From Polyangia bacterium (lineage in GTDB: Bacteria > Myxococcota_A > Polyangia > Fen-1088), in contig DATBHU010000168.1 of the NCBI GenBank assembly GCA_036557265.1, positions 1 to 51,350 of the forward strand: 51,350 bases of DNA, read 5' to 3'. The position numbers and the translations under genes are program-made. Numbering within the stretch: position 1 is the first letter of the stretch; each line of letters opens with the position of its first letter. The notes beneath the pieces were generated by a model. That model made no database searches and was not told where the DNA came from. It saw only the letters and a program-made list of their open reading frames with translations. Shown piece by piece: positions 17,178 through 24,030 of the stretch.

Positions 17178-18364
17178 GCGACCCCGTCCGCACTCTTCCC
17201 GCGCGCCCCTCGCCCCGCATCCTGCTCGGCCCGGGACCGAGCGAGGTCCCGGCGCGCGTCCTGGCGGCGCTGGCGGAGCCGACGCTCGGCCACCTGGATC
17301 CCGAATACCTCGCGATCATGGACGAGACGCGCGGCCTCTTGCAGCGCGTGTTCCAGACCGAGAACCAGCTGACGCTGGCGGTCCCCGGCACGGGCAGCGC
17401 CGGCATGGAGGCGTGCGTGGCGAACCTGACCGAGCCGCACGACCAGGTGATCGTCTGCGCGGCGGGCGCGTTCGGCGCGCGCATGGCCGACATGGCCGAT
17501 CGCCACGGCGCGTTCGTCCACACGCTGGAGGCGGCCTGGGGCCAGACCATCCACCCGGAGGCGCTGGCCGACGCGCTGAAGCAGCACCCCGGCGCGAAGT
17601 GGGTCGGCATCGTCCACGCCGAGACGTCGACGGGCGCGCACCAGCCGCTGCAGGAGATCGCGCGCGTCGCGCACGCGGCCGGCGCGCTGCTGCTCGTCGA
17701 CGCGGTCACGTCGCTGGGCGGGCACGAGCTGCCCGTCGACGCCTGGGGGATCGACGCCTGCTACAGCGGCACCCAGAAGTGTCTGTCGTGCCCGCCGGGC
17801 CTGGCGCCCGTCACGTTCAGCGCGGCGGCGCTGGAGGCGATGGATCGTCGCAAGACCAAGGTGCGCAGCTGGTACCTCGACATGTCGCTCATCCGCAACT
17901 ACTGGAGCGCGGATCGCGTCTACCACCACACCGCGCCCGTCAACATGACGTACGCGCTGCGCGAGGCGCTGTGCGCCGTGCTGGAGGAGGGGCTGGACGC
18001 GCGCATCGCGCGCCACCGCCGCAATCACCTGGCCCTGCGCGCCGGCCTCGAGACGATGGGGATCTCGTACATCCCGGCGGCCAGCCTGGCGCCGCTGAAC
18101 GCGGTCTACGTCCCGCCCGGCGTCGACGACGCGCGCGTGCGCGCGCGCCTGCTCGACGACTTCGGCATCGAGATCGGCGGCGGCCTCGGTCCGTTCAAGG
18201 GCACGGCCTGGCGCATCGGCCTGATGGGCGCCTCCAGCACGCGCCGCAACGTCACGCTGCTGCTGTCGGCGCTCGAGACCATCCTGCGCGACGCGGGCCT
18301 GCCGCTCGCGATCGGCGCGGCCGCGCAGGCCGCCGCGAACAGCTACGCGGCGGACGCTAAGTAG
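17174..18364 (+). CDS. Class V aminotransferase (alanine-glyoxylate / serine-pyruvate aminotransferase family)
   Basis: Blocks [39 protein letters not shown] and [16 protein letters not shown] (PLP lysine) are present. The TTG start overlaps the stop of the preceding gene (ATTGA). Confidence 0.85.
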
Positions 18365-20384
18365 CGGCGTCGGCGAGGGGCTCGGGGCGCGGCGCGGCGG
18401 GCCCGGCGGCGGCGAGGCGTTCCTGCTCGGCGCGTAGCGCGTCGCCGAACAGCGCGGTGACCCGGAGCGCCAGCTCGCCCGCGCCGCCCGCTTCCAGGTG
18501 CGGCGCGATCGCCGCGCTGAACTCGGCGCTCGACTGGAACCGCTGCTCCGGATCGACGGCGAGCGCGCGCGTCAGGATCGCCGGCAGCGGCGACGGCAGC
18601 GCCGCGATGCGCGCCTGCTGGGCCGCCGCCGGTCCGGCCGCCGCGGCGGTCAGCAGATCGTAGAACGACTCCCCCGGGTAGGTCGGCTCGCCGGTCGCCG
18701 CGTACAGCAGCACCAGCCCGGTCGAGAACAGGTCGGACCGCTGATCGACGACGCGGCCGCGCGCCTGCTCGGGCGACATGAAGCCGACGTTGCCGCGCAC
18801 CGTGCCGCTCTCGGTCTGCGACACGCGCTGCCGCGCCTTCATGATGCCGAAGTCGAGGATCTTCACCTCGCCGCGCTCGGAGATGATCACGTTCTCGGGG
18901 GTGATGTCGCGGTGGACGAGGCCGAGCGGCCGGCCGGCGTCGTCGCGCTTGTCGTGCGCGTACGCGAGCCCGTTCAGGATCTCCCGCCCGAGGTGAAGGA
19001 TGGCGTTGCGCGACAGCAGCGGCTCGCCCCGCTCGCGCAGCCGGTTGGTCAGCCGCCCCAGATCGCGCCCGACGATGTACTCCTCGGCGAGGAAGTACGA
19101 ACCGCCCACCTCGCCGAAGTCGAACACCGGGACGACGTTCGGGTGGACCAGCGTCGAGGCGAGGTTCGCCTCGTCGATGAACAGCCCGACCGCGGTGGCG
19201 TTGCCGTCCAGCTCGGCGCGCAGCCGCTTGATCACGAACGGCCGCCGGAAGCCCCCGTAGCCGAACGACACGGCGGTGAACACCTCCGCCATCCCGCCGA
19301 TCCCGATCTGATCGACCAGCAGGTACCGGCCCAGCGCCGTCCCCGGCCCCGGCCGGACGATCTGCACGACGGGCGGCGCCGCCGCCAGCGCGGCCGCCGA
19401 GACAGCGACGCCGACGCGCGTGGCGCTGGCGTCGATGACCATCGGCGGCGCGGCCGCCGCCAGCGCGCGCGGGGACGCGGGCAGCCGCGCGGGCGGTTCG
19501 ATCCGCCGGCGCGGCCGCACCGACAGCGCGGCGACCGCCGCCGCCAGCGGGATCGCGATCGACCACAGCACCTTCCGGCGCGCGTGATCGGCGGCGACCG
19601 CCGCGCCCTCGAAGTCGGCCGCCTGGCCGAGCGCCCACAGCCACAGCCCGGGCGCGATCGCGATCGCCGCCGCGTGCGTCGCCGGCGTCGGCAACGCGAC
19701 CGCCCCGGCCGTCTCGCGGCCCGGCAGCGGCACCAGCAGCGCGCCGTCGACGCCGCCCCACCCGAGCGACTGCCGCCCGTCGCTCAGCAGCACCGCCCGG
19801 CCCGTGTTCTCGGAGACGAGCTCCAGCAGCGAGCCGTCGAGCGGCCGCGCCAGCACCAGCACCGCCGGCGCCCGCCCGTGGCCGAGCGGCGCCGGACAGG
19901 CGGCGACCAGGAAGGCGCCGCGGCCGCCCGACATCACCGCGGTGGCCGCGCGGCCCGTCTCGGCGACGCGCTTGACGATCGGCAGCACCGGCACGCCGTC
20001 GGGGCCGTCGGTCTGCGCGAAGGCGAGCGTCGCCCCGTCGTACGAGATCGCCGCCAGCAGCTCCCGGTACGGCTCCCACCAGGTCTCGGTCGCCAGCAGA
20101 TCGGCGAACGTGCCGCGGCTGACCCGCCCGCGCAGGGCGGAGAGGAAGCGCGGGTTGGCCACCGCGTTCGCCGCCATCAGCGCGACCGCGTCGGTCTGCA
20201 ACGCCAGCGCGTCGCGCGCCAGCGCGGCCCCGTCCCGCGCCCGGTGCGCCGCCTCCTCCGCGACCCGCCGCGCGCGCGCCTGCGCCAGCGCGCGCGCGCC
20301 GACGACCGGCGCGCTCAGCACCGCGCCGGCGAGCGCCAGGCCCGCCAGCGTCCGTGCCCACCTGATGCCGCCGGCGCGTCCCAT
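18357..20384 (-). CDS. Receptor-like Ser/Thr protein kinase: N-terminal periplasmic sensor domain between two TM helices, C-terminal Hanks kinase
   Basis: TM1 is [17 protein letters not shown] and TM2 is [16 protein letters not shown], with about 270 aa between them. The kinase follows: [41 protein letters not shown] lies 3 nt after the upstream stop. Confidence 0.85.
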
Positions 20385-22840: not shown

Positions 22841-24030
22841 CGGCCGATCCCCTTGCCGTCGTAGAAGACCAGCGGCGTGCAGGCGGTCACCTCGGTGCGG
22901 ACGATGTTCGCCGCCCCCAGGCTGGCCTCGATGCGCGCCTGCGAATCCAGCCAGCTGCACGACGACGGAAAATCGGGCGCCGCGAAGCAGGCGACGTCTG
23001 CGCTCGCGATCTTGACGGCGTTGGCGGCGACGCGCCCGCGGTACGCCTCCGGGTTCAGCCCCTGCGCCGTCAGCAGCGCGGCCGCGTCGGGGGCCGCGCC
23101 CGGATCGAACGCGGCCGCCGTCGCGGGCGCGACCGCCTCGTAGATCCGGCTGTACGAACCGAAGCGCGGCCGCCCGGCGGGCGCGTCCGCGGGGACGCCC
23201 GCGAAAGGCGGACCGGTGCCCATCACGCGCGGCGCGCCGAGCGGCTGGGGCGCGCCGTCCGGTCCGCGCTGCGCCAGCTCGTAGAGCGGCGTCTCCTCGA
23301 CCACCCACCCGGCGCCGGTCGTGAAGTTGTTGCTGCCCTCGCCGAAGTAGGCGATCTGCTCGCCGTCGACCCACCCCGCCGCCGGCGTGTTGAGGAAGCT
23401 CGCGACCGGCGTCTGCAGATACGGGTGCACCGGCGGCGCGGCGCCCAGGCCGACGTCGTCGGGCCGCAGCGAGTACGTCCACAGCACGCCCGGATGGATC
23501 TCCAGCTCGTCGTCGAAGATCTTCTCGGCGGACCTGTAGGCCGTCGCGTCGGCTCCGACCGGGAGGACGGCGTAGTAGACCGTCCACAGCGGGCTGTAGA
23601 AGAGGCTGTGCGGGCCGACGTCGAACACGGCGGGCGCGTTCATGCCGTCGGCGGTCTTGGCCCGGTTCTGCATGGGGTTCTGCTGGTCCCACGCCGTGAC
23701 CAGCACGTACCAGGGCTGCACCCACACCTCGTCGAAGTCGGTCCACACCTCCGGCATCACGTAGGCCGCCGGCTGACCCTCGCTGTACGCGGGGATGACC
23801 TTCAGCGTCGCGCCGCCGCCGTCGGCCGGCGCGAGCACCTCGCGCGCGTCGATCCCTTGCGGCCGCGAAGGCACCACCGCGACCGGTCCGCCCGCCGCCA
23901 GCGCCGCGCGCAGGTCGAACAGCGTCCAGAGCCGCGGGCGGCCGTCGCCGGCGGCGGGATCTGACGACGACAGGCAACCGCTGATCGCACCGACCAGGAG
24001 GAAAGGCGCGCGAGGTTTCGATCGCCCCAT
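22837..24030 (-). CDS. Lipoprotein of unknown function (397 aa)
   Basis: This is the inner part of ORF 22837..24129, starting at MGRSKPRAPFLLVGAISGC (lipobox). It is rich in Trp/Tyr/Pro and has two Cys pairs near the C-terminus. No family recognised. Confidence 0.7.
   Translation of the reverse strand: MGRSKPRAPFLLVGAISGCLSSSDPAAGDGRPRLWTLFDLRAALAAGGPVAVVPSRPQGIDAREVLAPADGGGATLKVIPAYSEGQPAAYVMPEVWTDFDEVWVQPWYVLVTAWDQQNPMQNRAKTADGMNAPAVFDVGPHSLFYSPLWTVYYAVLPVGADATAYRSAEKIFDDELEIHPGVLWTYSLRPDDVGLGAAPPVHPYLQTPVASFLNTPAAGWVDGEQIAYFGEGSNNFTTGAGWVVEETPLYELAQRGPDGAPQPLGAPRVMGTGPPFAGVPADAPAGRPRFGSYSRIYEAVAPATAAAFDPGAAPDAAALLTAQGLNPEAYRGRVAANAVKIASADVACFAAPDFPSSCSWLDSQARIEASLGAANIVRTEVTACTPLVFYDGKGIGR

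Follow-up and report, generated by a model that had tools for sequence, protein, structure and literature searches.

In LuxP-LuxQ and TorT-TorS, a soluble periplasmic protein encoded beside a membrane sensor modulates the periplasmic domain of that sensor, and the YfiBNR system combines an outer-membrane lipoprotein, a periplasmic protein and an inner-membrane diguanylate cyclase. For CpxP-CpxA, a periplasmic accessory protein is likewise described as modulating a sensor kinase (PMC4160245). A different solution is found in Pseudomonas aeruginosa, where enzymes of cyclic di-GMP (c-di-GMP) metabolism carry CHASE4 domains that bind haem, in the case of PA14_53310, or copper, in the case of PA14_37690/PA2072 (PMC13277305). 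Here, we analyze a four-gene operon that encodes a lipoprotein, a porin, a blue-copper protein and a receptor Ser/Thr kinase, and that lies on the minus strand of a 51,350-nucleotide stretch (hereafter, the window) of the genome of a Polyangia bacterium (assembly GCA_036557265.1, contig DATBHU010000168.1). The functional statements made below are drawn from sequence, structural models and gene neighbourhood.

The interpretation that we favour, with confidence slightly above even, is that the operon is an envelope-spanning sensory module in which the cupredoxin protein is a co-sensor of the kinase, and that it represents the Myxococcota version of a wider pairing of cupredoxins with dCache_3-type sensors. 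The accessory-protein logic proposed for this module resembles that of LuxP-LuxQ, TorT-TorS and CpxP-CpxA, and an outer-membrane lipoprotein is a feature in common with YfiBNR. There is, however, no sequence or fold relationship to any of these systems, and the module stands apart from all of them in that its accessory is a copper redox protein, that a porin belongs to the unit and that the output is a Hanks-type kinase. With the CHASE4 enzymes of P. aeruginosa, the module has in common a periplasmic sensor of the CHASE4 class, to which the window sensor gives weak matches; in those enzymes, however, the ligand sits on the CHASE4 domain directly and no cupredoxin partner has been described, whereas the window sensor lacks conserved His, Cys and Met residues and is joined to a different output domain.

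The four open reading frames run from 24030 to 18357 on the minus strand and, in a window with a G+C content of 72-76%, show the codon-position G+C bias of real genes. In the direction of transcription, they encode the lipoprotein (22837..24030, 397 aa), the outer-membrane protein (OMP; 21452..22840, 462 aa), the cupredoxin protein (20388..21455, 355 aa, or 356 aa from an alternative GTG start at 21458) and the receptor kinase (18357..20384, 675 aa). The lipoprotein stop codon and the OMP start codon overlap in an ATGA (CCGATGACA), the OMP stop and the cupredoxin GTG in a GTGA or GTGGTGA (ACGTGGTGAGG), and a 3-nt gap separates the cupredoxin stop from the kinase start (TATTGAGGCATG). An earlier, sequence-only reading of this DNA had called attention to this tight packing, which can be read directly at the junctions, and to the same four products, including a barrel ending in FTW, all of which are borne out by the reading frames, models and profiles described here. 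The overlaps, together with the conservation of gene order, suggest that the four genes form a single operon and are co-transcribed.

The cupredoxin protein consists of a signal peptide, a helical N-terminal domain (residues ~33-110), an Ala/Pro-rich linker, the cupredoxin domain proper (20631..20888, minus strand, with the type-1 copper ligand codons), a CarboxypepD_reg-like beta-sandwich and a C-terminal tail. The helical domain, of about 75 residues, is conserved and gives weak TPR-like profile matches only. In the numbering of the 355-aa form, the ligands are His227 (20775-20777), within the motif FHNVFS, and Cys263 (20667-20669), His266 (20658-20660) and Met269 (20649-20651), arranged as C-x2-H-x2-M within LLCNIHASM, a spacing that we take to be that of the amicyanin loop. 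All four are invariant in 17 Myxococcota homologues and are kept in relatives from other phyla at 27-40% identity. When the profile of the 17 homologues was compared with the PDB, its matches included two copper nitrite reductases, in their C-terminal cupredoxin domains (9cck, 2.7e-9; 6hbe, 5.6e-7), a small blue copper protein (5fc9), and plastocyanins, amicyanins and also pseudoazurins; His227 and the C-x2-H-x2-M stretch align onto the H...C-x-x-H-x-x-M motifs of the solved cupredoxins, positions that are their copper ligands. The claim of a full type-1 ligand set at the amicyanin spacing thus holds, the ligands being both invariant and aligned with solved blue-copper sites. Taken alone, the single sequence stays below the cut-offs in its matches to the Copper-bind, halocyanin, plastocyanin and amicyanin profiles (15.2 bits in Pfam, against a cut-off of 21.2), and residues 280-331 similarly give sub-threshold matches to CarboxypepD_reg/fn3_3. 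The scores for the amicyanin equivalog TIGR02657 (13.4 bits, cut-off 110.2) and the plastocyanin equivalog TIGR02656 (14.9 bits, cut-off 87.85) are so far below the cut-offs that the protein falls outside both of these families and shares only their ligand pattern. We therefore regard it as a probable periplasmic type-1-copper cupredoxin with an Ig-like domain, which would bind copper.

The similarity to amicyanin, plastocyanin, pseudoazurin and the C-terminal domains of NirK proteins (9cck, 6hbe) accordingly lies in the signature of the cupredoxin fold, in the His...Cys-x2-His-x2-Met set with its amicyanin-like spacing and in a His-Asn dipeptide, at the level of profiles only and under the Pfam and TIGRFAM cut-offs. 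In contrast to these proteins, the window cupredoxin forms part of a three-domain protein that also comprises an Ig-like domain and a conserved tail, and its operon contains no gene for a dehydrogenase or reductase partner. The tail (VPDKYGKPRQPQLGY; 20391..20435, minus strand) is conserved in the alignment of the 17 homologues, in which VPDKYG, R349, G354 and Y355 are invariant and the other positions nearly so.

The kinase has a cytoplasmic Hanks-type catalytic domain (18534..19319, minus strand; residues 356-617), which matches Pkinase at E 2.2e-30 with 106.4 bits, against a Pfam cut-off of 31.7, and contains the glycine loop GIGGMAEV, Lys386, the HRD aspartate D490, N495, the DFG aspartate D511 and the SPE motif. 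Its catalytic loop reads HRDITPEN (18900-18925, residues 487-495), with Thr in place of the usual Lys, and every one of the 40 orthologues compared has Ser or Thr here (HRD-[IV]-[ST]-P-x-N), the other catalytic residues being present. The activation segment of the family also contains a conserved V-[KR]-G-N motif. A second kinase in the window (25682..26818) has the canonical loop HRDLKPGN.

N-terminal to the catalytic domain lies a sensor module (19515..20351, minus strand), supported by hydropathy, alignment and profile-profile comparison with hhalign. It comprises a first transmembrane (TM) helix (20292-20351), a periplasmic CHASE4/dCache_3-like domain (19575-20291) and a second TM helix (19515-19574). 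The hydropathy profile places the helices at residues ~12-31 and ~271-290; their cytoplasmic flanks are basic, with RPRRR after the second helix, so that residues ~32-270, about 240 in all, are expected to be periplasmic; the sensor domain had been said to face the periplasm, and this two-helix topology agrees, rather than placing the N-terminal domain in the cytoplasm. Conserved positions include T92, D95, E100 and a WWEP[FY]R motif. CHASE4 matches were obtained in 16 of 39 orthologues, all under the cut-off (best E 1.6e-4; 15-16 bits for the window protein, against 26.2). In the profile-profile comparison, however, the sensors of the Ser/Thr kinases aligned with those of cupredoxin-linked histidine kinases, described below, at a probability of 96.6% and E 6.4e-10 over 274 columns that include both TM helices and the periplasmic domain, which makes them homologous to bona fide dCache_3/CHASE4 members in the same TM-sensor-TM arrangement. 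In addition, a hidden Markov model (HMM) of the Ser/Thr kinase sensor matched two cupredoxin-linked histidine kinases in hmmsearch (2e-6 and 1e-5). The sensor therefore appears to be CHASE4/dCache_3-like. The sequence-only reading had guessed at a Cache/PDC domain and had proposed HMM and structure searches for this domain and for the lipoprotein; the class appears to have been guessed correctly, to judge from weak Pfam matches and profile-profile homology rather than a structure, whereas for the lipoprotein these searches returned neither a family nor a fold.

To determine how consistently these genes travel together, we scanned one genome per species, found 98 relatives of the cupredoxin protein and kept 80, all from Myxococcota (or from bins labelled delta-/Proteobacteria) and all from metagenome-assembled genomes. 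The loci were compared by tblastn with the four window proteins, and gene orders could be classified in the 45 with enough flanking sequence. The commonest order is kinase-lipoprotein-porin-cupredoxin (17 of 45), followed by lipoprotein-porin-cupredoxin without a kinase (9), porin-cupredoxin-kinase (8), porin-cupredoxin (4), the order of the window, lipoprotein-porin-cupredoxin-kinase (3), cupredoxin alone (3) and kinase-porin-cupredoxin (1). Thus, 42 of the 45 loci have the porin gene beside the cupredoxin gene, and 29 have the kinase gene as a neighbour, in four arrangements and usually upstream; kinases in the upstream and downstream positions belong to one orthologous family. Neighbouring genes mostly share 4 nt or stand a few nucleotides apart, and a 4-nt overlap between the lipoprotein gene and the porin gene is seen in most loci. 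The whole porin-cupredoxin-kinase subfamily (8 loci) lacks the lipoprotein. The census hence identifies the porin and the cupredoxin as the conserved core, with the lipoprotein and the kinase as frequent but not obligatory members. Order conservation in dozens of independent genomes is more than chance. The expectation that the four genes would be syntenic elsewhere is accordingly upheld in dozens of genomes, with the qualification that the window's own order is a minority one, that the kinase, where adjacent, is usually upstream, and that one subfamily lacks the lipoprotein. Synteny of the porin-cupredoxin pair extends to about 80 genomes of Myxococcota. The module also occurs in a cultured organism among these, Hyalangium rubrum (assembly GCA_034259325.1, contig JAXIVS010000015.1, ~49-55 kb), in the order kinase-lipoprotein-porin-cupredoxin.

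In several genomes, a module with the kinase coexists with a paralogous module that lacks it (the locus pairs L012/L039, L027/L046 and L041/L044). In five loci with the kinase-less lipoprotein-porin-cupredoxin arrangement (L010, L016, L026, L044 and L046), a gene for an AhpC/TSA peroxiredoxin lies directly upstream (~4700-5260 of the locus). Further upstream in L044 and L046, there is a gene for a HisKA/HATPase kinase together with one for a regulator that is NtrC-like by sequence. We considered whether this histidine kinase might contain a homologous sensor and rejected the idea because the sensor HMM gives no match to it, the kinase being an ordinary HisKA/HATPase protein; indeed, the HMM of the receptor kinase sensor matches no other protein in the Myxococcota loci.

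Beyond Myxococcota, the cupredoxin protein belongs to a very large family. A HMMER search with its cupredoxin and Ig-like part (206 aa) yielded 11,857 clusters, counted at 50% identity, at E<=1e-3, of which 4,768 reached E<=1e-10. Many members are 200-260 aa long and some contain 5-10 repeats; P0327, P0336-P0345 and others reach 600-1150 aa, and one 3178 aa, with 5-10 tandem cupredoxin units. Where named at all, for instance in Thermoanaerobaculia, the members are annotated as 'plastocyanin', 'carboxypeptidase regulatory-like domain-containing protein' or 'hypothetical', and a literature search found no published function for any of them. Over their cupredoxin and Ig-like domains, the short proteins of this family (~200-250 aa) are 35-45% identical to the window protein (E 1e-28 to 1e-33); they have the same ligands and, like it, are encoded beside dCache_3-type membrane sensors. 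They differ from the window protein in that the latter has the additional conserved helical domain of ~75 aa and a Pro/Ala linker, has a porin-fold OMP and a lipoprotein as partners, and is linked to a sensor with a Ser/Thr kinase output instead of a histidine kinase or GGDEF-EAL output.

In the metagenome contigs that encode the short family, both the Myxococcota porin and the lipoprotein are absent. A protein of 450-570 aa with a signal peptide and an aromatic C-terminus, which we infer to be an outer-membrane protein and which has no Pfam match, is encoded directly upstream in 31 of 39 loci. A membrane histidine kinase is encoded on the same strand in 15 of the 17 well-flanked loci, and an OmpR-type response regulator in 13, in the order regulator-kinase-OMP-cupredoxin or regulator-OMP-cupredoxin-kinase, that is, with the same alternatives, upstream and downstream, as for the Myxococcota kinase. 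A Pfam scan of three of these kinases revealed dCache_3 (5.8e-9 and 2.3e-5) and CHASE4 in two, followed by HAMP-HisKA-HATPase_c; against a cut-off of 25.7 bits, one of the dCache_3 scores is above (36.3) and the other just below (24.6). The third kinase has HAMP-HisKA-HATPase_c without a sensor-domain match. A motif related to the C-terminal tail, H-x-N-K-[YFH]-G-x-x-Y, is present in 38 of 39 short-family members and absent from the betaproteobacterial members; the idea that the KYG tail goes together with an OMP encoded upstream was rejected, the motif being found in the 38 members regardless.

The betaproteobacterial members are encoded on plasmids, are annotated as 'methylamine utilization protein', a name that looks unfounded, and retain the same His/Cys/His/Met set; here, the cupredoxin gene lies immediately upstream of a gene for a dCache_3-HAMP-GGDEF-EAL protein. 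On the plasmid of Burkholderia sp. THE68 (4476-8803 of the locus), genes for a DUF3034 protein and a group-1 truncated haemoglobin precede the homologue, and on that of Comamonas aquatica (4835-8789), a DUF4394 gene does. Thus, in at least three phylum-level groups, the cupredoxin-Ig family is genetically coupled to a single type of periplasmic sensor. The cytoplasmic output of that sensor varies between histidine kinases, c-di-GMP enzymes and, in Myxococcota, Hanks kinases, which amounts to output swapping. The proposal that the operon signals through Ser/Thr phosphorylation instead of a two-component system gains strong support from this comparison: the window sensor is joined to a Pkinase domain and the operon contains no response regulator, whereas homologous modules elsewhere put a histidine kinase with an OmpR-type regulator, or GGDEF-EAL, on the same type of sensor.

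The OMP has a Sec signal peptide ending in AQA/RA and a C-terminus that reads ...AVFTW. It gave no match to Pfam or NCBIfam at E<=0.1 and no sequence match to the PDB even with a profile of 33 sequences; one homologue, among the 1305 found, contains Pfam Porin_4. The AlphaFold model, built from 55 sequences (mean predicted local distance difference test, pLDDT, 78.9), has 16 strands and gave 161 matches at E<=0.001 when compared with the PDB by Foldseek; the 50 best listed are all porins or porin-derived, headed by the anion-specific porin OprP (2o4v; E 1.1e-10, template modelling (TM) score 0.52/0.57), then OprO (4rjw), with OmpT, chitoporin, OmpF/OmpC and PorB among the further matches. With a modelled 16-strand barrel, a signal peptide and a C-terminal aromatic residue, the protein is predicted to belong to the 16-strand porin superfamily, and it has the barrel in common with OprP/OprO, which are specific for phosphate and pyrophosphate, and with the general trimeric porins OmpF, OmpC and PorB. 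Sequence identity to these proteins is, however, 10-14%, and the OMP is not a member of the OprP/OprO sequence family (Pfam Porin_O_P), so the likeness is at the level of the fold only. It also has a long and, for a porin loop, unusually conserved first loop between strands 1 and 2 (residues ~91-147), for which no counterpart was identified in OprP/OprO or the general porins. An outer-membrane conduit of the MtrCAB kind, made of a barrel, a periplasmic redox protein and a surface lipoprotein, was rejected as the main interpretation because a barrel of 16 strands would be, to judge from the strand number, too narrow for a folded cupredoxin. The trans-envelope electron or metal relay that had originally been envisaged finds no direct support, the OMP having turned out to be an ordinary-sized porin rather than a conduit-type barrel.

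The lipoprotein begins with MGRSKPRAPFLLVGAISG, followed by Cys19 of the lipobox (LLVGAISG/C), which conforms to the bacterial pattern [LVI][ASTVI][GAS]C and in which the Cys is invariant or nearly so among homologues. Its 78 homologues are nearly all from Myxococcota. Conserved features are W96, W103-x-Q-P-x-Y108 and F144-Y-S-P-x-W149, as well as a Cys348/Cys358 pair. Neither the single sequence nor a profile matches anything in Pfam, NCBIfam or PDB sequences. The AlphaFold model is confident (58 sequences; pLDDT 92.1, predicted TM-score 0.88), and a Foldseek search with it recovered no fold match in the PDB (best E 3, TM-score <= 0.10) or, overall, in the PDB and BFVD combined (best E>1, TM-score <=0.12). 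The protein is predicted to reside at the outer membrane and to have a fold without a solved relative. In Myxococcus sp. RHSTA-1-4 (4443-9261 of the locus), a 33%-identical homologue is encoded without a porin or cupredoxin. Its gene adjoins that of an FHA-sigma54 activator and, in divergent orientation, that of a Ser/Thr kinase with TPRs, and an unannotated protein of 623 aa is encoded next; the lipoprotein family thus has a second context that is likewise kinase-linked.

Under the interpretation that we favour, the porin would admit a stimulus into the periplasm, where the cupredoxin protein, acting as an accessory co-sensor, would respond by a change in copper occupancy or in its Cu(I)/Cu(II) state. 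It would then bind or release the periplasmic domain of the kinase, and this would switch the activity of the kinase and hence the Ser/Thr phosphorylation of cytoplasmic targets. The contact between cupredoxin and sensor, the roles of the porin and the lipoprotein, and the nature of the signal are all conjectured here. The conserved site of the electron-transfer type and the peroxiredoxin, truncated haemoglobin and SCO neighbours point to redox state, oxidants or copper as the stimulus. Since CHASE4 domains of P. aeruginosa bind haem or copper directly, a theme of metals or redox chemistry is plausible (PMC13277305); for the same reason, we retain the alternative in which copper is sensed by the sensor domain directly, with the cupredoxin as a regulated effector. 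A bolder proposal, which we advance tentatively and regard as possible rather than probable, is that the cupredoxin-Ig family constitutes a new class of periplasmic redox co-sensors: the oxidation state of the copper would depend on an oxidant or reductant admitted by the porin and would be read by the dCache_3/CHASE4 domain via direct contact, possibly involving the KYG tail; the same input would have been plugged into histidine kinases, c-di-GMP enzymes and Hanks kinases; and the lipoprotein would be an outer-membrane partner specific to Myxococcota. Apart from the lipoprotein, the parts of the module come from known superfamilies, namely, cupredoxins, porins, Hanks kinases and Cache/CHASE-class sensors. 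Within the searchable literature, we found no description of an assembly of porin, blue-copper protein and dCache_3-like sensor or of the output swapping; Caulobacter HmrABCX was considered and proved unrelated to the module.

Several observations weigh against the co-sensor interpretation. The catalytic loop lacks the canonical Lys, so that kinase activity is an assumption. The alignment of orthologous sensors contains no invariant His, Cys or Met, which argues mildly against direct metal binding, and the assignment of the sensor to the CHASE4/dCache_3 class is founded on weak Pfam matches and profile-profile comparison. In 13 of the 45 Myxococcota loci, the porin-cupredoxin pair has no adjacent kinase, and so the pair can function without this kinase. 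Homology between the short-family OMP and the Myxococcota porin is not demonstrable (hhalign probability 31%). Finally, the family member on pSymA of Sinorhizobium has no sensor beside it but genes for a metallophosphoesterase and an SCO copper chaperone, which suggests that the cupredoxin-Ig protein has an activity of its own. That last context bears on an explanation that we consider unlikely, although worth weighing, namely, that the operon serves copper homeostasis or resistance, with the porin and the lipoprotein moving copper, the cupredoxin buffering, chaperoning or oxidising it in the manner of CopI, CopC or PcoA/PcoB, and the kinase acting as a local copper-sensing regulator. A type-1 copper site is an electron-transfer site and not a typical trafficking site. 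The operon, moreover, encodes no P-type ATPase, multicopper oxidase, CusCBA, CopC/D or His/Met-rich stretch, and none of these is found among the annotated flanking genes of the handful of related loci inspected; the OMP, with its porin fold and no Pfam match, is unlike PcoB/CopB; and a copper-sensing regulator is not what the absence of invariant His, Cys and Met from the sensor would lead one to expect. Nevertheless, the intact ligand set and the SCO chaperone beside the Sinorhizobium member fit such a role, as does the direct binding of copper by a CHASE4 domain (PMC13277305).

The same cupredoxin could instead belong to a periplasmic redox pathway, as an electron carrier or part of an oxidoreductase that acts on a small, perhaps anionic, substrate imported by the porin or on an oxidant such as peroxide or nitric oxide, the kinase being only regulatory. 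The closest solved relatives of the protein are indeed electron-donor cupredoxin domains fused to nitrite reductases, the best matches of the porin are the anion-specific OprP and OprO, and a peroxiredoxin gene stands directly upstream of the kinase-less paralogues, and a gene for a truncated haemoglobin lies upstream of the homologue in Burkholderia. We nonetheless consider this decidedly unlikely: no gene for a redox enzyme, be it a reductase, an oxidase or a cytochrome, is a conserved neighbour, and, in three phyla, the only partners that recur consistently are signalling proteins that share a single type of sensor domain. Still more improbable, in our estimation, is a role in monitoring envelope integrity, of the RcsF/OmpA-IgaA or NlpE-CpxA kind, in which the lipoprotein and the porin would report outer-membrane damage or defects in lipoprotein sorting and the cupredoxin would be a structural adaptor with an incidental copper site. 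The distribution of a lipoprotein, an OMP and an inner-membrane sensor over all layers of the envelope would suit this role, and so would the 4-nt overlap of the lipoprotein and porin genes in most loci. However, the lipoprotein is missing both from the kinase-containing porin-cupredoxin-kinase subfamily and from the distant histidine kinase-linked family, and the invariance of the copper ligands over very large distances argues for a function of the site. All three explanations are weakened by the missing partner genes that each would lead one to expect and by the consistent linkage of the family to signalling proteins only.

The surroundings of the operon complete the description. It is bounded by a divergent plus-strand gene that starts at ~24585 and by a convergent class-V aminotransferase gene (17174..18364, plus strand). 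The 3' ends of the kinase and aminotransferase genes overlap by 8 nt (18357-18364), which leaves no space for an intrinsic terminator between them. The intergenic region between the operon and the divergent gene (24031..24584) presumably contains the promoter; it has no match to the sigma-70 consensus, which is uninformative for a high-GC organism, and a scan for promoters and terminators gave nothing above chance. No second copy of the module was found within the window. Just upstream of the divergent gene lies the second Ser/Thr kinase (25682..26818, minus strand, 378 aa), which is canonical (Pkinase 3e-49) and is preceded by a 546-aa MalT-like TPR and LuxR/GerE regulator, the pair lying within 25682-28476 on the minus strand; it is not conserved beside the module in the related loci inspected (L001-L003 and L167). 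In the closest long-contig relatives (L001-L003), the divergent gene of the module encodes a Ser/Thr kinase fused to an RDD domain (~3500-5120, minus strand) and is followed by a radical-SAM gene and a GAF-GGDEF gene, so that the upstream neighbourhood of the window differs. The closest relatives of the window are uncultured Polyangia/Myxococcota, and soil-metagenome runs contain matches to it, whereas no RNA run was found to contain it.

For most bacterial Hanks kinases, and for nearly all of the very large kinome of myxobacteria, we know of no signal. In the kinase family analyzed here, the input side is genetically defined, consisting of a porin, a blue-copper protein and a CHASE4-like domain, and the family is represented in a cultured organism, so that the question of the signal becomes directly testable. 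The lipoprotein, with its confident model and no solved structural relative, is a target for structure determination. More broadly, a very large and mis-annotated cupredoxin family of ~12,000 clusters is linked to one type of sensor across at least three output chemistries, which provides a natural example of output swapping, among histidine kinases with response regulators, GGDEF-EAL enzymes and Ser/Thr kinases, behind an input module that is conserved. Should the copper protein be a co-sensor, this would represent a general, previously unrecognised way in which bacteria sense the redox state of the periplasm or copper, and the mechanism would be categorically new if the redox state of the copper is itself the transmitted signal.

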